64,000 bases of DNA from Elusimicrobiales bacterium. GTDB lineage: Bacteria > Elusimicrobiota > Elusimicrobia > Elusimicrobiales > UBA9959. Within the stretch, counting starts at the first letter, position 1, and each line of letters starts with the position of its first letter. The notes under the pieces were generated by a model that was not told the DNA's origin, ran no database searches, and was given only the letters and a program-made list of their open reading frames with translations. Positions 3 to 59,324 of this stretch are shown here, one piece after another. The position numbers and the translations under genes are program-made. The stretch lies in the NCBI GenBank assembly GCA_024681855.1, contig JAILAB010000058.1, positions 982 through 64,981 of the forward strand. Reading direction: 5' to 3'.

Positions 3-764
3 CGCTTCATTGCGCATGCTGCCATGCAGGGCATTTATCTGAAAATCATTGAGCGCAGGTCTTTTTTTCAATTCCTCTATGGTTCTGTTTATCTCGTATG
101 CTCCAGGCATAAAAATAAGAGTATGCCTTTCAGTCTGTTTTGTAAGCATTGCCGCTGCTTTGGCTGCGCTTTCCCATATAGGCATTTTTGCAGAGATGCT
201 GTCGCAGTATTTTATTGCGACAGGATACATTCGGCCTTCTGCGATTACTGTTCCGCAAGGGGCCATATAAGCTGATATTTTTTTTATGTCTAAGGTTGCG
301 GACATTACCGCTATTAACAGGTCTGGCCTGGATTTTTTCTGTAATTCAAGGCAGGCCGCAAGGGCAATGTCTGACGCTATGTGCCTTTCGTGAAATTCAT
401 CAAATATTATGCAACCGTATTTTTGCAGTTTTGGATCCCGTATTAAATCCCGCAATAATATGCCGTCTGTTTCAAATACTATTTTAGTTTCCCGGCTGGT
501 TTTGTCTTCCAGCCTTACCCTGTAGCCTGTTTCTTTGCCCAGCTCAGAATTACGTTCTTGAGAAATGCGCTTTGCTAGCATTCTGGCGGCAAGACGGCGC
601 GGCTGAAGCACGGCTATAAGTCCTTTTATTTTTCCGCATTCCAGCAGCATCTGCGGAACCTGCGTAGATTTGCCGGAGCCGGCAGGAGCTGCAAGCGCAA
701 GTCTCCGCTCCGCAAGCAGTTTTTCTGTTATTTCAGTTTTTTTTTCTAATATCGGAAGCGGCAT
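3..764 (-). CDS. hrpB: ATP-dependent DEAH-box RNA helicase HrpB, N-terminal part (runs off the window start; missing from the ORF track)
   Basis: Manual minus-strand translation from ATG at 764 (in-frame stop just upstream): MPLPILEKK...APAGSGKSTQVP (Walker A), LQPRRLAAR, GYRVR, TDGILLR, FDEFHER, MSATLD, FMPG, LHGSM. Confidence 0.85.
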   Translation of the reverse strand, partial: MPLPILEKKTEITEKLLAERRLALAAPAGSGKSTQVPQMLLECGKIKGLIAVLQPRRLAARMLAKRISQERNSELGKETGYRVRLEDKTSRETKIVFETDGILLRDLIRDPKLQKYGCIIFDEFHERHIASDIALAACLELQKKSRPDLLIAVMSATLDIKKISAYMAPCGTVIAEGRMYPVAIKYCDSISAKMPIWESAAKAAAMLTKQTERHTLIFMPGAYEINRTIEELKKRPALNDFQINALHGSMRNEA

Positions 765-828
765 TTGTTTATGTGTTGCGCTTTATTTATCTTCTAAAAT
801 TAATATTTATTTTCCAGTATTAGGCTTA

Positions 829-2652
829 TCAGTTAGCAAAGGGCTTTTCTGATATTTCCGGCAGCGGATTCCCCTCAGTGATTCTGATGAAATGATTGGC
901 CGGAAGATTCCTGTATATTGCTTTGCCGCTGTTCCATTCCACAGTAAGCGAAGCTTTTTTGTTTTTGCCAAGGCCGAAGTGCAGCCGCTGCGAATCCGCA
1001 AGGCCGGAGTGTCCGTGAGATGTTTTTACAAAACGCATCTGCCGTTTAGGGAAAAGAAAGCCTGTTCTAAGAATGGCTTTAGTGCCGGCAGGGCTTTTTG
1101 CCGTAAAGCCTTTGCCTTTGCCTTTTAAGGTTATATGAAGCCAGCCATTGCCATTATCGCAAGCATTCAGGAAAAGAGCGGGAGAGGGAACCCTGCCTTG
1201 TCTTTTTTCCGCAGGCATGCGCATCCAGGATTTGCCTGCTATTATGTCCATGCAGCCGTCATTATTATAGTCGGCTATTGAAATGCCTGCGGAGCTTTCC
1301 CAGTCAAAGCCAGCAAGCTCTGTCTTTTCTTCAAACACAAGCGGTTTTTTAGCGCTGTACAGTCGCAGGTACTGGCCGTCAGGATAATCCCCGCTGGAGA
1401 GCAGCAGATCCTGTTTTCCGTCATTGTCAAAATCTGCCCAGCTTGCCCGCATGTCTCCCTGATTCCAGTTATCCGGGTGCTGGTGAACCCTGTTCAGCAG
1501 ATCTGGGTAGCGGGTAAATGAAAAATCTTTTTTCTTGCCGCCGTTCACGAGCAGGCTTGAGCGATCAGATGAGTTGCCTGCCCAGCCATGCGTTATTTCT
1601 CCGAGGAAAATGTCTAAATCTCCGTCATTGTCATAGTCAGCCGGGGCGGCAGAGAATGTATTGCCATGAGAGCGGAATTCCTTTTCCGGCTGGCGGCTGG
1701 ACTTAAGCCATTCAGGATACAGGCCATGGCGTATTTCATCACCGTCAAAATGCGTTTTTTTCGCTATATCTGTGAAAGTTCCGTTTCCATTGTTTTTCCA
1801 AAGCCTGTTTGCCTGGCGGCCATATACTGATACGAATATGTCTTCATATCCGTCATTATTCCAGTCTCCATGGGAAACTCCGTATACTGGCCTGCTTGAA
1901 TCCGTTTTGCCTTCTGTTTCCTTTGTGAGCAGGCCTGCTTTTTCTGTTATATCTGTGAAGGTTCCGTCGCCATTGCCTTTGTAAAGCCTGGACGGATAGC
2001 AGATTAGCGATATTCCGTATTCTTTGTACCAGCTGCCTGTGAACAGGTCTAAATTTCCATCCTTGTCATAGTCCATGAATAATGCTGAGGAAACAGTTTC
2101 AGGAGGAAAATTATTTCCTGAAACCTGAGCAAAATGGCCATTGCCGTCGTTTAGATATATCTGTGATCTCAAGCCGTCGTCTTTTTTTTCATATATAATG
2201 TTCCCGGCTTCATCTTTAAGAATATTCCCTGCTTTATCAGTTTTAGGCTTGTCATATTCGCAATATATGGCGGAGAATATGTCTGTAAAACCGTCATTGT
2301 TTATATCTGCGGCAGTAAAGAAAGCAGCCTGCCTTTCCATGCCGGGGAATGCAGGGTCTTTGGCAAGGCCGGATTCTTCGGTGAAATCCCTGAATGTTCT
2401 TTTGCCGTCTTTTTCCTCGTTAAGCAGCACTTTTGTCTTTGTTGTTCCGTCTTTGCCTGTTATAATGAGATCGTCCCATCCGTCGCCGTTTATGTCGGCC
2501 CATATTCCATTTTGCATGCTCGTGTCGGACAGTCCTGCTTCTTCAGCTGCGTTAGTAAACCATTTTTTTGAATTCTGTGGCTGAGCTGATATTGAGGCTG
2601 CTGCTGAAATAAAAAATATGCTTGTGCCGAATAATAAAACTGTTTTTCTCAT
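829..2652 (-). CDS. Secreted CRTAC1/ASPIC-UnbV family FG-GAP repeat protein
   Basis: Signal peptide; about seven DxNxDGxxD Ca-binding FG-GAP motifs (ADINGDGWDD, ADINNDGFTD, DYDKDGNLD, GDWNNDGYED, DYDNDGDLD, DFDNDGKQD, DYNNDGCMD); C-terminal ASPIC/UnbV signature RLHFGLG...VEWNSG. Confidence 0.85.
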   Translation of the reverse strand: MRKTVLLFGTSIFFISAAASISAQPQNSKKWFTNAAEEAGLSDTSMQNGIWADINGDGWDDLIITGKDGTTKTKVLLNEEKDGKRTFRDFTEESGLAKDPAFPGMERQAAFFTAADINNDGFTDIFSAIYCEYDKPKTDKAGNILKDEAGNIIYEKKDDGLRSQIYLNDGNGHFAQVSGNNFPPETVSSALFMDYDKDGNLDLFTGSWYKEYGISLICYPSRLYKGNGDGTFTDITEKAGLLTKETEGKTDSSRPVYGVSHGDWNNDGYEDIFVSVYGRQANRLWKNNGNGTFTDIAKKTHFDGDEIRHGLYPEWLKSSRQPEKEFRSHGNTFSAAPADYDNDGDLDIFLGEITHGWAGNSSDRSSLLVNGGKKKDFSFTRYPDLLNRVHQHPDNWNQGDMRASWADFDNDGKQDLLLSSGDYPDGQYLRLYSAKKPLVFEEKTELAGFDWESSAGISIADYNNDGCMDIIAGKSWMRMPAEKRQGRVPSPALFLNACDNGNGWLHITLKGKGKGFTAKSPAGTKAILRTGFLFPKRQMRFVKTSHGHSGLADSQRLHFGLGKNKKASLTVEWNSGKAIYRNLPANHFIRITEGNPLPEISEKPFAN

Positions 2653-2693
2653 TATGTCTTCCTTAACTTTTTATTTGAGATGTTTATAAATTT

Positions 2694-3335
2694 CTATTTA
2701 AGATGTGAGAACGGAATTAATTTTTCTCCAAATTTGCCTGGAGTGTATGTGCCGGGGACTTTTGTCTGTTCTGCTTTTTTTATGCGCAGAGGCCTTATGC
2801 CGGCTTTCATAGCTTGGGCAAGCCCTTCATCAGATGATGCGGCAAAAAAGAACGGCTTCTCTTTTTCCAGCAGAATATACTTATCATTCGGCTCTGGCGT
2901 GAAATATATTTCAGAAGGCAGCCTTTTCCATGTGTTTTTAAGAATGTCTCCTCCATAGTTTTCCCTGTCGCAAAGCACAATAACCCTAATGCCCATTGTT
3001 TTTGCGGCCAGGCACATAAGGCTTGGCACAGGCTTTGCCAGGTCTTTTTCTGCTGAGGCATTTAGCATTTCCCAAAACTTAGAGTTGCCTTGCTTTAGCC
3101 CGGATTCTTGTGCTGCTGCCCATGACTTCGTGGAATCTGCCAGTCCGCCATCGTACTCAATGGCTATGGAATTTTTCATTATGCTGTTAATGCTGTAACA
3201 TAATGCCCACAGGCTTATTATTGAAACAGTTATCTTTATTTTAAAAAAAAGCCTTGAGAAAAAAGATTTTTCTTTTGGCGGCTGATAAGGAGGATAGGGG
3301 GGATAAGGATATGGGTATTGATTGCCGCCTGTCAT
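2694..3335 (-). CDS. Membrane-anchored class B acid phosphatase (AphA, HAD IIIB)-like protein with degenerate catalytic motifs
   Basis: Collinear with AphA: NSKFWEMLN ~ NPVFWEKMN; GIRPLRI...TPGKFGEKLIPFS ~ GARGIRI...QAGAFGEEVIVNS. Motif I reads IEYDGG instead of FDIDDT and motif IV reads ASSDEG instead of GDSDND. Pro/Tyr-rich N-terminus and one TM helix. Confidence 0.65.
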   Translation of the reverse strand: MTGGNQYPYPYPPYPPYQPPKEKSFFSRLFFKIKITVSIISLWALCYSINSIMKNSIAIEYDGGLADSTKSWAAAQESGLKQGNSKFWEMLNASAEKDLAKPVPSLMCLAAKTMGIRVIVLCDRENYGGDILKNTWKRLPSEIYFTPEPNDKYILLEKEKPFFFAASSDEGLAQAMKAGIRPLRIKKAEQTKVPGTYTPGKFGEKLIPFSHLK

Positions 3336-3336
3336 T

Positions 3337-4809
3337 TCATTTTCCTCTTTTTATGAAAATTCTTTCAGTAAATGGCGTAAAAGCATATTTAGATGAAATG
3401 CACCAGCGAATCACTTCCCTGGTAGGGCGTTTTGAATTTGCAAATTCCGCGGCATTGGCAAGCAGCGAAGTGTTTTCTGCCGTTATCATAGAATCAGGCA
3501 CAGAAACATGATATATTTTTTCTGGCTTTATTGGGCCTGCATCGCTTTCTATCTTTTCCATCTTTGCGGTTTTATTGCCTTCAGCGGCATAATATAACTT
3601 CAGTCCTGAAACAGTAAAGCTGTCTTTTGGAAGCTGTCTTATGGAATCAATCAGGTTCTCTCCCCGTATTTTAACGAAAACAATGCTTGAGTCTTTAGGA
3701 AAAGAAGAATATAAGTCTTGAAGCCTTACCGTGGTGCTGGAAAATGGGCTGGCCGGTTCGGAAAGAGGCATTAGCGAAGCATTCGTCCTGGCCCATCTCC
3801 TTATGCAGTCCGCAGAGAAATTTGCCATAGGATACATTCCTGAAGCCTTTAGCGGCAGGGGGGAACGCAATGTTCCTATTTTTTTTGAGAAATGTTTTTT
3901 TTCCGATATCTGATACCGGACAGCTATATTATGAAGTTCCTGATCTTCTTTGTATCTGAGCGGATCTATGTCTATGGTTTTTGAATTGATGGAAGAGATT
4001 TTTCCGCTTTCTCGGCTGAATGATATTTCAGTGCGTTCTACTTTCTTATTGCCCTTCCCGGCTGGAATGATCCAGGTGTTGCCAGAGCGGAATGTTTTTT
4101 TTACTTCAGGATCGTCTGTTATTATAAGGCTGGTCCTTTTTGCCTGGCTAAGGAATTTTTTGTAATAGCCCTTGTCTGATTTTGCTTTAGGATCAATGGA
4201 AAGCAGCATTACTATTATTTTTGCGCCTTCTTTTTTCATGGCGTTTATTGCCAGATTGGCGTCAAAGCTGCCTTTTTCCAGACGGAATCGGGCATAATTC
4301 TTCTGTCTTTCGGGACTCTCTGGATTTGCTAGCAGAACTGAGAAAAATCCTATCTTATGTCCGTTTATGTCTATTATATGATACTGCGGCAATCCGGGCT
4401 GGCGCTGGCCATTTCTTAAATACAGATTAGTTGCTATAAGCGGAAATTTGGCATTGTCTGCCAGCCTGTCAAAATCTTTTGCCGGCAGGTTTATGTCTGT
4501 TATGCCTGGGGCTGCGGCTGAATAAGGAAAAGCATTCATCATTTCCAGCACATCAGAGCCTTTGGTAAGCCTTCCAGCCGGAGTGTCTGCGGACCAGTTG
4601 CCTAGATCCACTATAAGCTTTGGCAGCGTTTCCCTGCCGTATATGTTTTTTAATGCAGGGAAACCGCCGCAGCTTCCCTGTTTGAAGCAGTCATCAGGCG
4701 CCTGTATGCTGCCCTGGGCGCGCGCGGTAGAAAAAATAACGAAACTTTCTTTTTTCGCGCATGCGCCCAGCATTAGCAGCATGGCGGCTAAAAGCCGCAA
4801 TTTTTCCAT
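3337..4809 (-). CDS. 5'-nucleotidase-fold lipoprotein with metal-binding residues lost (pseudo-enzyme)
   Basis: Lipobox LGAC (Cys17); collinear with the upstream 539-aa nucleotidase (GGF, DxG, T-KG, FP..TNLY, KIGF) but STARAQG/DLGN/PGITD/LLSID/ITDDP replace HTxDxHG/DxGD/GNH/H/GHxH. Confidence 0.75.
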   Translation of the reverse strand: MEKLRLLAAMLLMLGACAKKESFVIFSTARAQGSIQAPDDCFKQGSCGGFPALKNIYGRETLPKLIVDLGNWSADTPAGRLTKGSDVLEMMNAFPYSAAAPGITDINLPAKDFDRLADNAKFPLIATNLYLRNGQRQPGLPQYHIIDINGHKIGFFSVLLANPESPERQKNYARFRLEKGSFDANLAINAMKKEGAKIIVMLLSIDPKAKSDKGYYKKFLSQAKRTSLIITDDPEVKKTFRSGNTWIIPAGKGNKKVERTEISFSRESGKISSINSKTIDIDPLRYKEDQELHNIAVRYQISEKKHFSKKIGTLRSPLPLKASGMYPMANFSADCIRRWARTNASLMPLSEPASPFSSTTVRLQDLYSSFPKDSSIVFVKIRGENLIDSIRQLPKDSFTVSGLKLYYAAEGNKTAKMEKIESDAGPIKPEKIYHVSVPDSMITAENTSLLANAAEFANSKRPTREVIRWCISSKYAFTPFTERIFIKRGK

Positions 4810-4815
4810 TGCTGC

Positions 4816-6435
4816 TTATTTTACCTGAACAAGGCGAGGCCCATAAGGCGCAACCTTAACGGGATTGGCTTTCAGGTCATCAATCAGATAATCGCGCAGC
4901 ACGCGCTGATTGTCTTCTTTTATATTGCCCTGTCCCAATATGTCTCCGCCATTTCCGCCGCCTACGAGATAATTATTGGTGGCTATGCGATATGTTTTTG
5001 TATAGTCAATAGGAGTGAACACCGGGTTTTCACTGTCGCAGGTATTGCCGCAGAGGCTTACTTCAATGACTTCTGTCTTGGCAGGCTCATTGGTAGCAGC
5101 ATTTTCTTCCTTTACTTTCCAGAGAGCTTTTATTCCGGAGAACTGAAGCGTTGTGGTTGGCTGGCCGCCTTTGAGATGAATGCTCTTGTTTACCATGTCA
5201 AATACCTGCTGGCCTGTAAGTTCAGTAACAACAAGAGTATTGTCAAAAGGCATTATCTGATAAACATCGCGGAAGGTGATCTTGCCTTTTGCTATGTTTG
5301 TGCGCACTCCGCCGCTATTCTGAACGCCTATGTCTGTTTTGGCCTGGCGGCGCATTGCATCCGCAAACCAGTCTCCGGCCATATTGTCAATGCCGCCATC
5401 GCGGAAATTGCGGTCCAGGTCTATGTCTGTATAGCTTATTTCCTGATTCATGACTGCATCGGCTTCATCTTTGTATTTCTGGATTGTGGGCAGAACATAT
5501 TCTTCGCTGCCTGTGTCTTCTGTCCAAAGCTCAATGAGTTTGCCGGATGTGTTTTTGAGCTTGCGTGTTTCATCGTCAAATTCTAGTTCTACTCTTGAGG
5601 CATTATAAAGATGAGATCCGCTTTCCGTTAGAAGTATGCCGGACTGCTCGTCTTTATAGCTTGTATAAAAGGCTGAGTGATTATGCCCGCCGAAGATAAC
5701 GGCAGGATAGCCTTTTATGGCTCTTGCTACCGCAAGAGTGCCTGACTGTTCCATTTCAGGCAGTATCTGCTTTACTTCTGTTCTCTTTCCGCCGTATGGG
5801 CCGCCAAGACCAAAATGCGCAAGGATTATGATTGCATCCGGCTTTTCTTTGCGCATTATTTTCTTTACCCATTTTTTTGCTTCTTTAGTCTCATCGCCAA
5901 AATAGTAATCTTTCACATTTGCTGGCAGCGTGGAAGTGGCAGTGTGCGTTCCTACTATGCCCAATATTGCTATTTTATAGCCTCCGACTATGCGTATTGT
6001 ATATGGATGAGTGAAGCTGGGGGTCTTTTTTGTTGCTTTTTCATACATATTTGTGCTAAGCACAGGAAAGTTGAAACCCTTTGCCATTTTTTTTAGCACG
6101 TCTATGCCATAGTCAAAATCGTGATTGCCGGGAACCATTGCTGAATATCCAAGCAGGTTCATAAGCTCTACTGTGGCAGCGCCTTTAGAAAAATTTCCTT
6201 CCGGCGTACCTTGGAAAGTGTCTCCGGAATCTAAAAGCAGGTATGGATTTTTTTCTTTGTGTATAAGCGAAGCAAGCGCTGCGAAGCCGCCTATGGGTTT
6301 CTGCTCTCCATTGCGTTTTGCCTGATGCACGGAGTATCCTCCATGAACATCACTGGTATGGTATATTACTACTGTCCCCGCAGAAGCAGGCATTGCCAGA
6401 GCTAAGGATAGGAATATGCTTGAGAGTAATTTCAT
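4816..6435 (-). CDS. Secreted 5'-nucleotidase / UDP-sugar hydrolase (UshA-like metallophosphoesterase with 5'-NT C-terminal domain)
   Basis: Signal peptide; intact HTSDVHG, DSGDTFQG, PGNHDFD, LAHFG, GGHNH; C-domain QNSGGVR, MPFDN, ATNNYL. Confidence 0.9.
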   Translation of the reverse strand: MKLLSSIFLSLALAMPASAGTVVIYHTSDVHGGYSVHQAKRNGEQKPIGGFAALASLIHKEKNPYLLLDSGDTFQGTPEGNFSKGAATVELMNLLGYSAMVPGNHDFDYGIDVLKKMAKGFNFPVLSTNMYEKATKKTPSFTHPYTIRIVGGYKIAILGIVGTHTATSTLPANVKDYYFGDETKEAKKWVKKIMRKEKPDAIIILAHFGLGGPYGGKRTEVKQILPEMEQSGTLAVARAIKGYPAVIFGGHNHSAFYTSYKDEQSGILLTESGSHLYNASRVELEFDDETRKLKNTSGKLIELWTEDTGSEEYVLPTIQKYKDEADAVMNQEISYTDIDLDRNFRDGGIDNMAGDWFADAMRRQAKTDIGVQNSGGVRTNIAKGKITFRDVYQIMPFDNTLVVTELTGQQVFDMVNKSIHLKGGQPTTTLQFSGIKALWKVKEENAATNEPAKTEVIEVSLCGNTCDSENPVFTPIDYTKTYRIATNNYLVGGGNGGDILGQGNIKEDNQRVLRDYLIDDLKANPVKVAPYGPRLVQVK

Positions 6436-6504
6436 TGTTTCTCCTTGTTTTTTGGCTATTTATGGAACTGTAATTTATTTGGCCACCATTATTAATATTA
6501 AAAT

Positions 6505-6541
6505 AAAAAAAAGGAAGGCGGGGCAAGCCTTCCTTTTTTTT
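6505..6541 (-). terminator. Intrinsic terminator downstream of rpsI
   Basis: aaaaaaaaggaaggc-ggggcaa-gccttcctttttttt inverted repeat with A/T tails. Confidence 0.85.
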
Positions 6542-6562
6542 GTTGCTTCCGGATACAGAGTA

Positions 6563-6961
6563 TCAGCGTTTTGAGAACTGGAAGCGTCTTCTTGCTTTCG
6601 GCTGGCCAGGTTTCTTTCTCTCAACCATGCGGGGGTCGCGAGTGAGGAATCCTGCCTTTTTCATCGTAGCATGGAAATCATCTCCAAGCTTAGCGATGGC
6701 GCGGGCAATGCCATGGCGGATTGCTCCCGCCTGGCTGGATGGGCCGCCGCCCTCTACTTTGGCTGTGCAGTCAAATTTCTGGTCTTTTGTGAGGCTGAAA
6801 GGTGAATTTACAACATACGCAAGACGCGGAATATTTCCGAAGTATTCTTCAAGTGTTTTTCCATTTATAGCTATTTTGCCTTCTCCGTTCTGGAAAAGAC
6901 GCACTTGAGCTATAGAAGTTTTGCGCCTGCCTGTTGCTGAAATATAATTCTGTTTTTCCAT
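6563..6961 (-). CDS. rpsI: 30S ribosomal protein S9
   Basis: ATGRRKTS, GGG..SQAGAIRHGIARA, LTRDPRMVERKKPG..KARRRFQFSKR. Confidence 0.98.
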   Translation of the reverse strand: MEKQNYISATGRRKTSIAQVRLFQNGEGKIAINGKTLEEYFGNIPRLAYVVNSPFSLTKDQKFDCTAKVEGGGPSSQAGAIRHGIARAIAKLGDDFHATMKKAGFLTRDPRMVERKKPGQPKARRRFQFSKR

Positions 6962-6979
6962 TTGTTAATCCTGCTTGAA

Positions 6980-7411
6980 TTATTTGGCCGTTTTGGCCGC
7001 TTTGAACTGCGTCTGCTCACCTTTAAAAAGGCGGAGGCGTTTCATGCGTTTTGCGCGCATTTTGTTGTTGTCCAGCATGCGGTAAACGGCGAGCTCAAGC
7101 ACTTTGGTGGAATCCTGTTCCATCTGTCTCTTGTAAGGGATGGTTTTAGCCCCGCCGGCATAGCCGGAATGGCGGAAGTAGAATTTGTCTTCCGCTTTGT
7201 TGCCTGTGATCCGAATCTTATCGATGTTGGTAACGACAACAAAATCACCGCAATCTGTCTGCGGCGCGAAATCGCGTTTGTGTTTGCCGGCTAAAAGCAC
7301 GGCAATTTTTGTGGCAAGTCTGCCTAATACCTGGTTTGACGCATCGAGAAAATGCCACTGGCGGCTCTTCTCCATTACATCAACCTTTGGAAGTGTTGTT
7401 CTCTGTATCAT
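6980..7411 (-). CDS. rplM: 50S ribosomal protein L13 (start revised to MIQRTT)
   Basis: WHFLDAS..VLGRLATKIA..L.GKHK, DCGDFVVV.N, YFRHSGYAGG; the extension to 7489 overlaps the promoter. Confidence 0.97.
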   Translation of the reverse strand: MIQRTTLPKVDVMEKSRQWHFLDASNQVLGRLATKIAVLLAGKHKRDFAPQTDCGDFVVVTNIDKIRITGNKAEDKFYFRHSGYAGGAKTIPYKRQMEQDSTKVLELAVYRMLDNNKMRAKRMKRLRLFKGEQTQFKAAKTAK

Positions 7412-7498: not shown

Positions 7499-9481
7499 CT
7501 AATTCATCCATATCTTTCCTTCTTCGCAGAATCTGTACTGCTTAACGCCTCCCGTGCCGAAAAATGAGGTGGATTTTCCGCTAGACACAGATGTGTCTCC
7601 GTTCCTGTATCTTTCTATATAGCTGGGCAGGCCTTTATTTATTGGATTCATGCAGCCTGAATTTTCTATATAGCAGAGCAGGTAATGAGTCATTGCCCCG
7701 TCATTAATTTCTTTCAGTTTTACTTGATCGCCTTTAAGAACATGATCCGGGCAGTTTGTGGCTTTGAGCAGCCAAAGATATTCCGGCTCTGATATTTCCC
7801 TATAGCCGCTCTTCACCAGGCTTGTTATTTCTCTGCTTGCCTTAATCTGTTTGCGGCTGCCTGGAACGGGCTGGTATGAAAAAATCCAGGTTGTTTTTCC
7901 GGTTGACGCGGCCTCGCTCCATGCGTTTATGCCTTCAGGCGTTATTTGTCCGTTTTTGTCAAAAATAAGATCCCCGTTTGCATCGCGCAGCTTAAATATT
8001 TCCCTTAGATTTATGCCTTTTTTTTCAAAGAATTTCAGCGCATCGCGGCTTACGGTGCGGGCATAGGCATTGTATCCCTGCATCGTAAGCCTGAATTTAA
8101 GGCCGTTTTCTGAGTCTTCATAATAAAGCCCAGGCCTGCCGGGGAATTTTCCGCGAACGACCTCGACAGCCCCATTTGCTTCTGCTGCCCTCATGTTGCG
8201 GTGCAGCCTTAAGTGTTCTTCTGATAGCATGTCAACGGTGGTCCTTTGATTAACGGCACCCCTTGTTTTTAATTCTTCCAGTATTTCCTCATCGCTCATA
8301 AGGTCAACTTTCAGCTTATCAGCGTTTATAATGGCTTCCCTGTTGTTAGGAGAAATCTGAATGACTAAAGAGAAATAATGAAGCGCTTCTTTATACATTG
8401 ACTGGGCAAGGAAATAGTCTGCCACCTCTAAAAGAATTTTTTCATCAAATGGCGCTGCAGCGGCTGCCATGCGGTATTTCTGATCTGCCGCTGACCTGTC
8501 TTCAAGACGGATAAGCGTTTCGGCTTCTTTTATGCAGAGCCTGGCATGCTTGGCATGCTCATTGCCTGTTAATTTCTGCGCCCTTTCATATTCATCAATA
8601 GCCTCTTCGTATTCTCCGGCATTAACGAGGACATCTGCCAGCTTTGATGCAAGCTCCAGGTTTCTATTATCTATTTTGCGGCAGCGTCGTCCTGTTGCGG
8701 CAGCGGCAATAAAGTCTTCTTTTTCAGCCTCTTCATTAAATTTTTTCATGCAGGCTACTGCTTCTTCGCCTTTGTTTTCTTTGGCTTTTTTTGCCGTTGC
8801 CATGCTGTTTGTTTTTTTCTGCTTGTTTGAAACCCTTTTCATTGCTGCCGATGCTTTTGCGGCATTGGCATCTGCTTTTGCTGATATGTCTTCTCCTGCT
8901 GAGGCAAGCGCTGTGGCATAAGCTTTTTTCGCTTTTATGAACAGATCCTGAGCTTCGTAAATTTCTCCTTTGGAATAAAGCGCTTCAAAATCCGTAGGGT
9001 TTATTTCTAGAGCGCTTGAAATAAGCTCTTCCGCCCTGTCATATATGCCCATGGCCATATATGTCTTTGCCGCTTCCAGGTTAGGCTTAAATTCACCTTT
9101 GCCATATTGCATAGCTTTAAGGCAGTTCTGCAAGCCTTCATCAGGCTTGCCTTTCATTCTTTTAAATTTGCAAATCCCCAAATTCCATGCATAGTCTTTA
9201 GGGTATTTTTTTTCCATTGACGAAGCTGTTGTTTCCAGTGAGGTAAGCTGGCTTTTGTTTGCATAAGATGAAAGGTCTAGCGCATATAAGAAAAGATTTC
9301 TGTCATTAGGAAATTTCCTAAGTCCGTCCATTGCGGCATCAAAAGCTGCTTCTTCGGAATGAGCCCTCTCTTCAAATTTTGCTTTCTGCAGCTCTTCTGC
9401 TGCTCCTGCATGAGCGAATGACGGCAGCAGAAGAGCCGGACAGATAATCATTAATTTGCTGAAAAGGGCTTTTAATTGCAT
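7499..9481 (-). CDS. Secreted TPR-repeat protein with an uncharacterised C-terminal domain
   Basis: Signal peptide (AHA); several TPR units (e.g. ALEINPTDFEALYSKGEIY, LVIQISPNNREA); non-TPR C-terminal ~260 aa with 4 Cys; ATG overlaps the dcd stop. Confidence 0.75.
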   Translation of the reverse strand: MQLKALFSKLMIICPALLLPSFAHAGAAEELQKAKFEERAHSEEAAFDAAMDGLRKFPNDRNLFLYALDLSSYANKSQLTSLETTASSMEKKYPKDYAWNLGICKFKRMKGKPDEGLQNCLKAMQYGKGEFKPNLEAAKTYMAMGIYDRAEELISSALEINPTDFEALYSKGEIYEAQDLFIKAKKAYATALASAGEDISAKADANAAKASAAMKRVSNKQKKTNSMATAKKAKENKGEEAVACMKKFNEEAEKEDFIAAAATGRRCRKIDNRNLELASKLADVLVNAGEYEEAIDEYERAQKLTGNEHAKHARLCIKEAETLIRLEDRSAADQKYRMAAAAAPFDEKILLEVADYFLAQSMYKEALHYFSLVIQISPNNREAIINADKLKVDLMSDEEILEELKTRGAVNQRTTVDMLSEEHLRLHRNMRAAEANGAVEVVRGKFPGRPGLYYEDSENGLKFRLTMQGYNAYARTVSRDALKFFEKKGINLREIFKLRDANGDLIFDKNGQITPEGINAWSEAASTGKTTWIFSYQPVPGSRKQIKASREITSLVKSGYREISEPEYLWLLKATNCPDHVLKGDQVKLKEINDGAMTHYLLCYIENSGCMNPINKGLPSYIERYRNGDTSVSSGKSTSFFGTGGVKQYRFCEEGKIWMN

Positions 9482-19379: not shown

Positions 19380-19463
19380 TGCGCGGAAAGGGACTTGAAC
19401 CCTTAAGGCCTTTCGGCCATACGGTCCTGAGCCGTACGCGTCTGCCAGTTCCGCCACCCGCGC
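19380..19463 (-). tRNA. tRNA-Leu(CAG), CCA not encoded
   Basis: GCGCGGGTGGCGGAACTGGCAGACGCG-TACGG-CTCAGGA-CCGTA-long variable arm-GGTTCAAGTCC-TCCGCGCA. Confidence 0.95.
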
Positions 19464-19473
19464 ATTGCAAACA

Positions 19474-19557
19474 TGGTTGGGATAGGATTCGAACCTATGT
19501 AGGGCAGGGCCCGACGGTTTTACAGACCGTTGCTTTTGACCGCTCAGCCACCCAACC
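19474..19557 (-). tRNA. tRNA-Tyr(GTA)
   Basis: GGTTGGG...ACGGT-CTGTAAA-ACCGT...ATAGGTTCGAATCCTAT-CCCAACCA; perfect acceptor and T stems. Confidence 0.95.
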
Positions 19558-59240: not shown

Positions 59241-59324
59241 GGGCTTGTGGCGGAACTGGTAGACGCGACGGACTTAAAATCCGTTTCCCGCAAGGGAGTA
59301 TGGGTTCGATTCCCATCATGCCCA
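59241..59324 (+). tRNA. tRNA-Leu(TAA)
   Basis: GGGCTTGTGGCGGAACTGGTAGACGCG-ACGGA-CTTAAAA-TCCGT-variable arm-GGGTTCGATTCCC-CATGCCCA. Confidence 0.93.

Follow-up and report, generated by a model that had tools for sequence, protein, structure and literature searches.

The window analysed here is a stretch of 64,000 nucleotides (nt) from an Elusimicrobiales bacterium (assembly GCA_024681855.1, contig JAILAB010000058.1), corresponding to contig C78 of a genome 2.0 Mb in size and complete to 90%. Five genes, termed g1 to g5, are read from the minus strand at its beginning, and we focused on the first three, which encode a secreted 5'-nucleotidase (g1), a lipoprotein of the same fold (g2) and a putatively membrane-anchored relative of the acid phosphatase AphA (g3). 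An earlier note, made from the sequence alone, had described the five genes as co-oriented, with gaps of 6, 1, 41 and 64 base pairs (bp), behind the terminator of rpsI, and the list of open reading frames (ORFs) agreed with it exactly. Positions of the genes and their features are collected in Table 1. Loci (L), genomes (G), contigs (C), sequencing runs (X) and families (f) are cited by our own codes where they have to be told apart.

Table 1. Genes and features at the start of the window (positions in the window; aa, amino acids).
Feature	Position	Strand	Description
rplM-rpsI	6563-7411	minus	conserved upstream neighbours of the cassette
Intrinsic terminator after rpsI	6541-6505	minus	15-pair stem with 5 GC pairs and T-run; parts the ribosomal-protein genes from the cassette
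g1 leader	6436-6504	minus	AT-rich; Shine-Dalgarno AAGGAG 5 nt before ATG
g1	4816-6435	minus	539 aa; UshA/CD73-family secreted 5'-nucleotidase
g1 signal peptide	6379-6435	minus	about 19 aa, ending in ASA before G, without lipobox; cleavage site placed by eye from the translation
g2	3337-4809	minus	490 aa; lipoprotein paralogue of g1
g2 lipobox L-G-A-C, residues 14-17	4759-4770	minus	Cys17 invariant in 19 of 19 aligned g2 sequences
g3	2694-3335	minus	213 aa; AphA-like (class B, HAD) with predicted membrane anchor; degenerate DDDD motif
g3 N-terminal transmembrane helix	3177-3233	minus	helix 25-53 in the AlphaFold2 model at pLDDT 97-98; basic residues before the helix
g3 motif I E60-Y-D-G-G64	3144-3158	minus	AphA D-I-D-D-T; nucleophile Asp replaced by Glu
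g3 motif IV S167-S-D-E-G171	2823-2837	minus	AphA D-S-D-N-D; both catalytic Asp lost
g4	829-2652	minus	607 aa; secreted FG-GAP/UnbV_ASPIC repeat protein; neighbour outside the conserved cassette
g5	3-764	minus	N-terminal 254 aa of HrpB DEAH helicase, cut by the window end; outside the cassette

Conservation and expression of the locus

Twenty loci were fetched around matches to g3, 18 from family f1 and two from f3. The g2 gene was located directly upstream of g3 in all of them, in 18 by BLAST and in the other two (L019 and L020) as very divergent lipoprotein copies, and g1 preceded g2 in 18 of the 20. Upstream of the cassette, rplM-rpsI was found in 17 loci, the contig ending in the other three. 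The gene junctions were 0 to 8 nt long or overlapping in most of the loci. Among 41 relatives g3 was present in 26, including 23 of 24 members of f1, both members of f3 and none of the 14 members of f2. Far from being absent or unlinked, the orthologues of g2 and g3 are thus syntenic in related genomes. Family f2 carried the first two genes: g1-like genes were detected in 29 of 29 genomes, and in all six loci examined one or two copies of g1 stood before a g2 lipoprotein devoid of the motifs, g3 being absent. The f2 genomes with g1-g2 are mostly 1.2 to 1.8 Mb in size, and the g1-g2 pair occurs in all three sampled families of the order.

Of 201 genomes from across the phylum, 33 had a match to the g3 profile. 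In other orders of the class (f6 to f9), 12 of 14 loci had g1 followed directly by g3 without an intervening g2, and a PHO4 phosphate transporter gene was located just upstream of g1-g3 in f9 and in some f8 loci. Six g3 loci came from other classes; they are DDDD-intact and have no g1 nearby, and in five of them (L114 and L116 to L119) g3 directly follows a co-oriented gene of the SNF family (sodium:neurotransmitter symporters). Our reading of this history is that an old g1-g3 pair came first, that g2 was added in Elusimicrobiales, and that f2 afterwards lost g3 and f1 kept it in a catalytically degraded form. As a side observation, the PHO4 gene is accompanied in L112 and L113 (f9), in L102, and also in L108 and L109, by a conserved ORF of about 190 aa (cluster c17), beside the g1-g3 pair or near g3. 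No Pfam match was found for the c17 ORF; the neighbourhood points to phosphate acquisition.

The genes that follow g3 are of a different kind. Those for the FG-GAP protein and HrpB were found after g3 in only one of the 20 loci, L011 of the same genus, and a HIT-domain gene follows g3 in 13 others, with dnaG and rpoD next in most of those. Therefore, g4 and g5 are lineage-specific neighbours. The domain matches agree with the identities given in the earlier note, g4 as an ASPIC/UnbV protein and g5 as the DEAH helicase HrpB: Pfam detected FG-GAP_3 (144 bits in six stretches), FG-GAP and UnbV_ASPIC (35 bits, cut-off 23.4) in g4, and the truncated g5 matched positions 1-251 of the 825 in the HrpB profile TIGR01970 (E value 1.6e-67, 228.5 bits against a whole-protein cut-off of 546); the full-length orthologue in L011 has 850 aa. 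The five-gene layout of that note, as one system, found no such backing. One functional operon of all five genes would suit their common orientation, the gaps of 41 and 64 bp, the lack of a terminator-like hairpin between g3 and g5 and the same gene order in L011, but we consider it very improbable in view of the synteny, g4 and g5 following g3 in a single locus of 20. HrpB, moreover, is a cytoplasmic helicase, and we know of no link between it and periplasmic phosphatases. We conclude that g1 to g3 are a vertically inherited cassette of the Elusimicrobiales and that g4 and g5 are unrelated neighbours.

The hairpin behind rpsI was the sole minus-strand terminator-like site below position 6600 in a terminator scan. 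No promoter-like site was found between this terminator and g1 in a sigma-70 scan, which is uninformative for this phylum, and an Rfam scan at gathering level, made over the entire window, detected no riboswitch or leader before g1. Some hints on expression came from contigs assembled from RNA libraries. One contig of the metatranscriptome run X17 (4676-6479) contains all of g1 and the g1/g2 junction, another (3098-4695) g2 and the g2/g3 junction, and two further RNA runs contain parts of the stretch. Among the RNA contigs listed, none spans g3/g4 or g4/g5; cover of g4 and g5 is patchy, and no conclusion was drawn from it. Contig depths fall from rpsI to g5, these being per-contig figures that give no ranking of genes. 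The stretch was also present in metagenome runs of 10 studies, with samples from ruminants and other guts.

Some further features of the flanks were recorded. A contig of RNA run X20 (6428-7016) crosses the rpsI terminator and reaches the start of g1, while those of X17 and X19 end to one side or the other of the terminator; the X20 contig may reflect partial read-through of the terminator. Many f1 genomes (L012, L015, L017, L018, L024 to L027) have a fast-evolving ORF of 150 to 220 aa between rpsI and g1, for which no Pfam match was found. The window is without this ORF, and its rpsI-g1 spacing is only 127 nt. A secreted TPR-repeat protein of 660 aa is encoded upstream of rplM (7499-9481, minus strand), and three tRNA genes (19380-19557, minus strand; 59241-59324, plus strand) were the only gathering-level Rfam matches in the window.

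The 5'-nucleotidase g1 and its lipoprotein paralogue g2

Both domains of a 5'-nucleotidase were recognised in g1 above the Pfam gathering score, Metallophos with 56.5 bits (cut-off 21.5) and 5_nucleotid_C with 108.7 bits (cut-off 23.6). All five metallophosphoesterase motifs (DxH, GD, GNH[DE], H and GHxH) are present in 19 of 19 aligned sequences, namely the window and 18 orthologues, and residues D29, H31, D72, N104, H105, H207, H251 and H253 are invariant in the 18 orthologues. The closest solved structure was the Thermus 5'-nucleotidase 2z1a (E value 1.7e-44), with full-length matches also to UshA, NadN and CD73. Against the UshA equivalog model NF007109, g1 scored 197.4 bits, far below the curated cut-off of 600, and it therefore belongs to the UshA family without being UshA proper. 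The description of g1 as an intact, secreted UshA-type nucleotidase thus holds for intactness, secretion and family motifs, and does not extend to UshA itself. Judged by its motifs, g1 is predicted to be the sole catalytically competent member of the cassette.

Two other 5'-nucleotidase paralogues were encountered elsewhere in the window genome (G000). One, of 550 aa and with intact motifs, lies on contig C79 (L122:3145-4797, minus strand) beside genes for an isochorismatase-family (PncA-like) protein and a nicotinate phosphoribosyltransferase (L122:2529-3053 and 1160-2353), and may be a NadN-like nucleotidase of NAD salvage. The second, of 580 aa, lies on contig C41 (L121:4923-6665, plus strand); it has a C-terminal tail rich in Lys, Ala and Glu and reads GDYH at the position of GHNH in g1. 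Downstream of it are two ABC exporter genes and a gene for an alkaline-phosphatase-family lipoprotein (the locus also lists L121:10339-12000).

In g2, Pfam detected 5_nucleotid_C alone, with no match to Metallophos. A profile built from 19 g2 sequences nevertheless matched E. coli UshA (1hp1_A) over the full length with an E value of 7.2e-38 (positions 22-458; UshA from residue 5 to 483). The AlphaFold2 (AF2) model of g2 had a mean predicted local distance difference test score (pLDDT) of 87 and a predicted TM-score (pTM) of 0.80, and Foldseek matched it to UshA, CD73 and NadN with E values of 1e-30 to 1e-32. The metal motifs are replaced in the window by ARAQ, GN, GITD, S and TDDP, and none of the 19 g2 sequences has the full set of five. 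Remnants are present in two f3 sequences, of which L029 keeps DIH and SHSH. These data, together with the invariant lipobox cysteine, bear out the earlier view of g2 as a lipoprotein with the fold of g1 and no metal ligands. At the columns aligned to R410, F429 and F498, which we take to be the nucleotide contacts of UshA, g2 is variable or non-aromatic, while the g1 counterparts R378, F397 and Y489 are invariant. Since it has neither metal ligands nor canonical nucleotide contacts, g2 is predicted to be dead both for catalysis and for canonical substrate binding.

In a tree with g1 sequences, 21 g2 sequences formed one side of a branch with support 100, and g2 is a single-origin paralogue of g1. 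It evolves faster than g1, with a mean column identity of 37% versus 57%. In genome G016 (L120, G016:C18) two frames, of 316 and 167 aa (3724-4674 and 4703-5206), seemingly take the place of g2 on a contig that stops short of g3; the split may be genuine or come from a faulty assembly. An Atlas search with g2 returned generic 5'-nucleotidase clusters only. In the nearest Bacteroidota clusters (582 aa) 5_nucleotid_C was present on 100% of the members and Metallophos on 13 to 37%. Degenerate N-domains or dead 5'-nucleotidase paralogues may occur in other phyla too, and be commoner than reported.

Whether a gene without its catalytic residues is merely decaying can be judged from the ratio of non-synonymous to synonymous substitution rates (dN/dS), which we estimated roughly by the NG86 method from five to seven pairs per gene. 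The ratios were 0.04-0.23 for g1, 0.11-0.25 for g2 and 0.07-0.24 for g3, and in the least saturated pair (L027/L030, dS 0.06-0.12) they were 0.17, 0.11 and 0.17, respectively. In f2, g2 gave 0.14-0.17 versus 0.12-0.17 for g1. The g3 variants of f8 with Glu at the nucleophile position gave 0.085-0.33, and the pair L108/L109, in which a dead g3 has no adjacent g1, gave 0.04. Over the whole range of 0.04 to 0.33 the ratios for g2 and g3 stayed away from 1. Because they fall in the range of g1, g2 and g3 are selected pseudoenzymes rather than decaying genes, and with the synteny data this upholds the earlier proposal that both are full-length pseudoenzymes kept by selection.

Functionless decay would account for the lost catalytic residues, for the faster evolution of g2 and for its apparent split in G016. 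It is at odds with intact full-length frames of g2 and g3 in about 20 genera, with dN/dS of 0.04-0.25, with confident AF2 models (pLDDT 91 for g3 and 87 for g2), with the invariant lipobox cysteine and with the retention of g2 in genomes of 1.2 to 1.7 Mb. We give it almost no weight, neutral decay of g2 and g3 being contradicted by the selection and synteny data.

Degeneration of the g3 active site

As a single sequence, g3 matched the AphA model TIGR01672 weakly, over its C-terminal 59 residues only (E value 1.3e-3, 18.3 bits, equivalog cut-off 195.8). A profile of 21 g3 sequences matched the AphA structure 1z5g_A over the whole HAD domain (residues 42-214) with an E value of 5.1e-14. The AF2 model had a pLDDT of 91, and its top 10 Foldseek matches were all AphA (E values 3e-9 to 5e-8, TM-score about 0.6). 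In place of the N-terminal arm of AphA, g3 has a long helix that comes after Lys and Arg residues. By the positive-inside rule this helix would be an uncleaved membrane anchor, with the N-terminus inside and the HAD domain in the periplasm. Its residue W43 is invariant and S48 nearly so in the 21-row alignment. The predicted cytoplasmic N-terminus of the window protein (residues 1-34, window 3234-3335) contains a Pro/Tyr-rich run, YPYPYPPYPPYQPP, that is not found in the other 20 aligned homologues. Positions aligned to F56 and W77, presumably residues of the AphA nucleoside pocket, are partly preserved, the former being aromatic in about 20 of 21 rows and the latter Trp in 17 of 21.

On alignment to AphA, the four DDDD positions of g3 read E60, D62, S167 and G171, so that one of the four aspartates is kept; D62, S168 and D169 are conserved. 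For family f1 as a whole the motif can be written E-D-x-G. The earlier note had called g3 a membrane-anchored AphA-like protein with broken HAD motifs. The anchor and the AphA fold agree with our findings, and the motifs are not simply broken, the nucleophile being a Glu and one Asp remaining. A pattern scan for the FEYDD form returned 69 loci, 65 from Elusimicrobia and four labelled plainly as 'bacterium'.

The g3 tree agrees with taxonomy, and the altered residues could be placed on it. The nucleophile is Glu in 19 of 19 f1 sequences, which form one clade (support 99). A second Glu clade comprises three f8 sequences (support 99), nested in a group of f8 whose other members read DDD. Asp is found at this position in f3, in f9, in most of f6 to f8 and in the other classes. 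Both Glu groups have Gly at the position of D171. In a third lineage, L108 and L109, Gly has taken the place of the nucleophile. D167 is kept in two of the three f8 Glu variants and the motif I Thr in one, while in f1 the D167 position is variable (S, A, P, N or V) and the motif II Thr/Ser has become C, A, I or L. From the distribution of these residues, the catalytic residues of g3 appear to have been lost independently at least three times, twice to the same Glu/Gly state, and the degradation looks like a stepwise path that began with the Glu/Gly pair.

A recurrent replacement of this kind raises the possibility that g3 is still an enzyme, with Glu60 and Gly171 forming a remodelled site in which a Glu nucleophile works with another metal geometry or performs phosphotransfer instead of hydrolysis. 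The same combination in two separate clades would be a specific solution rather than random decay, the early-stage f8 variants keep the Mg ligand Asp167 and in one case the motif I Thr, and D62, S168 and D169 stay conserved. The f1 proteins, however, vary at the Mg ligand and have lost the motif II Thr/Ser. The two Asp pairs of class B enzymes are absolutely conserved and essential (PMC8475336), and HAD phosphatases act by way of an aspartyl-phosphate intermediate (PMC3498132). Furthermore, the lineage with Gly at the nucleophile position is still constrained, and therefore the selected function of g3 needs no carboxylate there. An enzymatic g3 is, in our judgement, unlikely.

Function of the cassette and comparison with known systems

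The preferred reading is that g1 to g3 would form a periplasmic nucleotide-dephosphorylation cassette in which g1 is the sole enzyme and g2 and g3 are non-catalytic, membrane-attached accessory proteins, and we put its probability a little above one half, at about 0.55. The ancestral module would have consisted of a 5'-nucleotidase and a class B acid phosphatase that turned external nucleotides into nucleosides and phosphate, a role like that of UshA and AphA which the DDDD-intact g1-g3 pairs, some of them beside a phosphate transporter, fit. In the lineage of the window, g2 and g3 would then have become non-catalytic membrane-attached accessories of nucleotide dephosphorylation. The g2 protein would most likely pair with g1 or position it at a membrane. 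The g3 protein, which still has its fold, its conserved membrane helix and some of the nucleoside pocket of AphA, would most likely bind a ligand or a membrane partner without hydrolysis. We favour an accessory role tied to g1 because the g1-g2 linkage persists across the order and the g1-g3 linkage across the class, because the gene junctions are a few nt long and g2 has gained a lipid anchor, and because in g3 the membrane helix is conserved and the pocket aromatics are so in part.

Several observations weigh against this reading. The accessory-subunit model is one that we infer, and complex prediction for mature g1 (residues 21-539) and mature g2 (18-490), with values of 0.16, 0.56 and 0.00 against a mark of 0.32 and without controls, speaks neither for nor against binding. 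In G014 (L016) the local g1 is a 52-aa remnant and an intact g1 lies on another contig, the 670 nt left upstream of g2 in L014 gave no match to g1, and L108 and L109 retain a dead g3 without adjacent g1. Family f2 has g2 without g3, and f8 has the Glu-variant g3 without g2; therefore, the two pseudoenzymes are not mutually dependent. The two extra paralogues in the window genome mean that g1 is not the sole candidate partner or enzyme. Glu at the nucleophile position of g3 could in principle allow a slow or changed reaction. In the tree, g2 branches off outside every g1 sequence from the class, a placement that does not date the duplication and may be an effect of long-branch attraction. The dN/dS ratios are rough, as dS was saturated (above 1 or undefined) in several pairs, with none of the ratios near 1. 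Finally, RNA libraries may contain DNA, and a contig over two genes is not proof of one transcript.

The main rival takes up some of these points. It holds that g2 and g3 are each non-catalytic and unrelated to g1, g3 being, for example, the partner of an inner-membrane transporter and g2 a structural envelope lipoprotein, and that their adjacency is a leftover of tandem duplication and an old operon. G014, which retains g2-g3 with its intact g1 elsewhere, L014 and the g2 of f2 without g3 are in line with it, as are the strong constraint on the dead g3 of L108 and L109 (dN/dS 0.04), the intact g3 behind an SNF-family transporter gene in five of six loci of other classes with no g1 nearby, and the conservation of W43 and S48 in the g3 helix. 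The linkage data argue the other way: g1-g2 adjacency in 18 of 20 f1/f3 loci and six of six f2 loci, with junctions of a few nt, and g1-g3 adjacency in 12 of 14 loci of other orders. A linkage lasting so long across order and class is unusual for functionally unrelated genes, and we hold this rival to be possible, as a tentative second choice.

A bolder form of the accessory model, which we regard as doubtful, would be a membrane-organised nucleotide-harvesting assembly with one catalyst. In it, g1 and the lipid-anchored g2 would form an active/dead heterodimer, the bacterial equivalent of the CD73 dimer, and g3 would be a ligand-binding or transporter-coupling subunit at the inner membrane, converted repeatedly and convergently by the change of the nucleophile from Asp to Glu and of the motif IV Asp to Gly. 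If true, a HAD phosphatase would have become a receptor in nature at least three times in a single phylum.

The scavenging of nucleotides in the periplasm by a 5'-nucleotidase and an acid phosphatase of class B or C is textbook biology, and we know of no described case in which any partner is not an enzyme. The ushA and aphA genes of E. coli are unlinked, and AphA is a soluble periplasmic homotetramer with a cleaved signal peptide. The E. coli pair and the cassette have two unrelated folds in common, which work on nucleotides in the periplasm, g1 and g3 being homologues in sequence and fold; unlike there, the genes here are adjacent, g3 is probably membrane-anchored, and g1 falls under the UshA equivalog cut-off. 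Growth of E. coli on purine nucleotides needs UshA and AphA together, and both are active, whereas g3 in the family of the window is without three of the four DDDD aspartates (PMC8475336 for the E. coli enzymes). In H. influenzae, NadN, e(P4) and AphA jointly turn nucleotides into nucleosides. That system (NadN/e(P4)/Hel/AphA) likewise joins a 5'-nucleotidase-family enzyme to DDDD acid phosphatases, one of them a lipoprotein, and converts external nucleotides and NAD to nucleosides for uptake (PMC10694654). All three Haemophilus proteins are active, however, and it is their HAD enzyme that is the lipoprotein; in the cassette the lipoprotein is the dead 5'-nucleotidase paralogue.

Precedents for the proposed accessory roles come from other proteins. 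The LytM-domain protein EnvC and the lipoprotein NlpD are catalytically inactive envelope regulators that activate amidases. Like g2 and g3, they are inactive homologues of periplasmic hydrolases, some of them lipid-anchored. EnvC and NlpD are kept as controllers of an active enzyme; they differ in fold and pathway, and activation of g1 by g2 is only hypothetical. CD73, the eukaryotic ecto-5'-nucleotidase, is a lipid-anchored homodimer. It shares with g2 the two-domain fold, by Foldseek, and lipid attachment to the membrane, and could be a model for the g1-g2 pair, except that CD73 is a homodimer of two active chains and the g1-g2 heterodimer is hypothetical. Vegetative storage proteins (VSPs) of plants belong to the same DDDD superfamily and have non-catalytic or weakly catalytic roles, and those of soybean are said to be without the nucleophile Asp; they are eukaryotic, class C-like and soluble, serve in storage and have no link to a nucleotidase. 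Arabidopsis VSP1 is an active enzyme (PMC3498132). Our literature searches returned no account of a lipoprotein that is a dead 5'-nucleotidase paralogue, nor any of a Glu-variant AphA. In a table of one published survey Elusimicrobiota are scored as lacking ushA-like genes, and its supplementary tables may list matches from Elusimicrobia (PMC10454023). The preservation of g2 and g3 by selection in many genomes suggests non-enzymatic helper roles, of which we know no earlier description.

The organisms that carry the cassette are largely uncultured Elusimicrobia of gut and groundwater, and the mechanism proposed for it is one that we infer. A clean pattern emerges from the comparison of genomes, and the convergence of g3 on the Glu/Gly state was unexpected. 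Two folds in one small cassette seem to have given up catalysis and yet are as constrained as the active enzyme, g2 even in streamlined genomes of 1.2 to 1.7 Mb. Pairs of active and inactive orthologues are ready-made for experiments, and the cassette would provide a natural system for the roles of pseudoenzymes in the bacterial envelope, be it anchoring, regulation or the hand-over of ligands.

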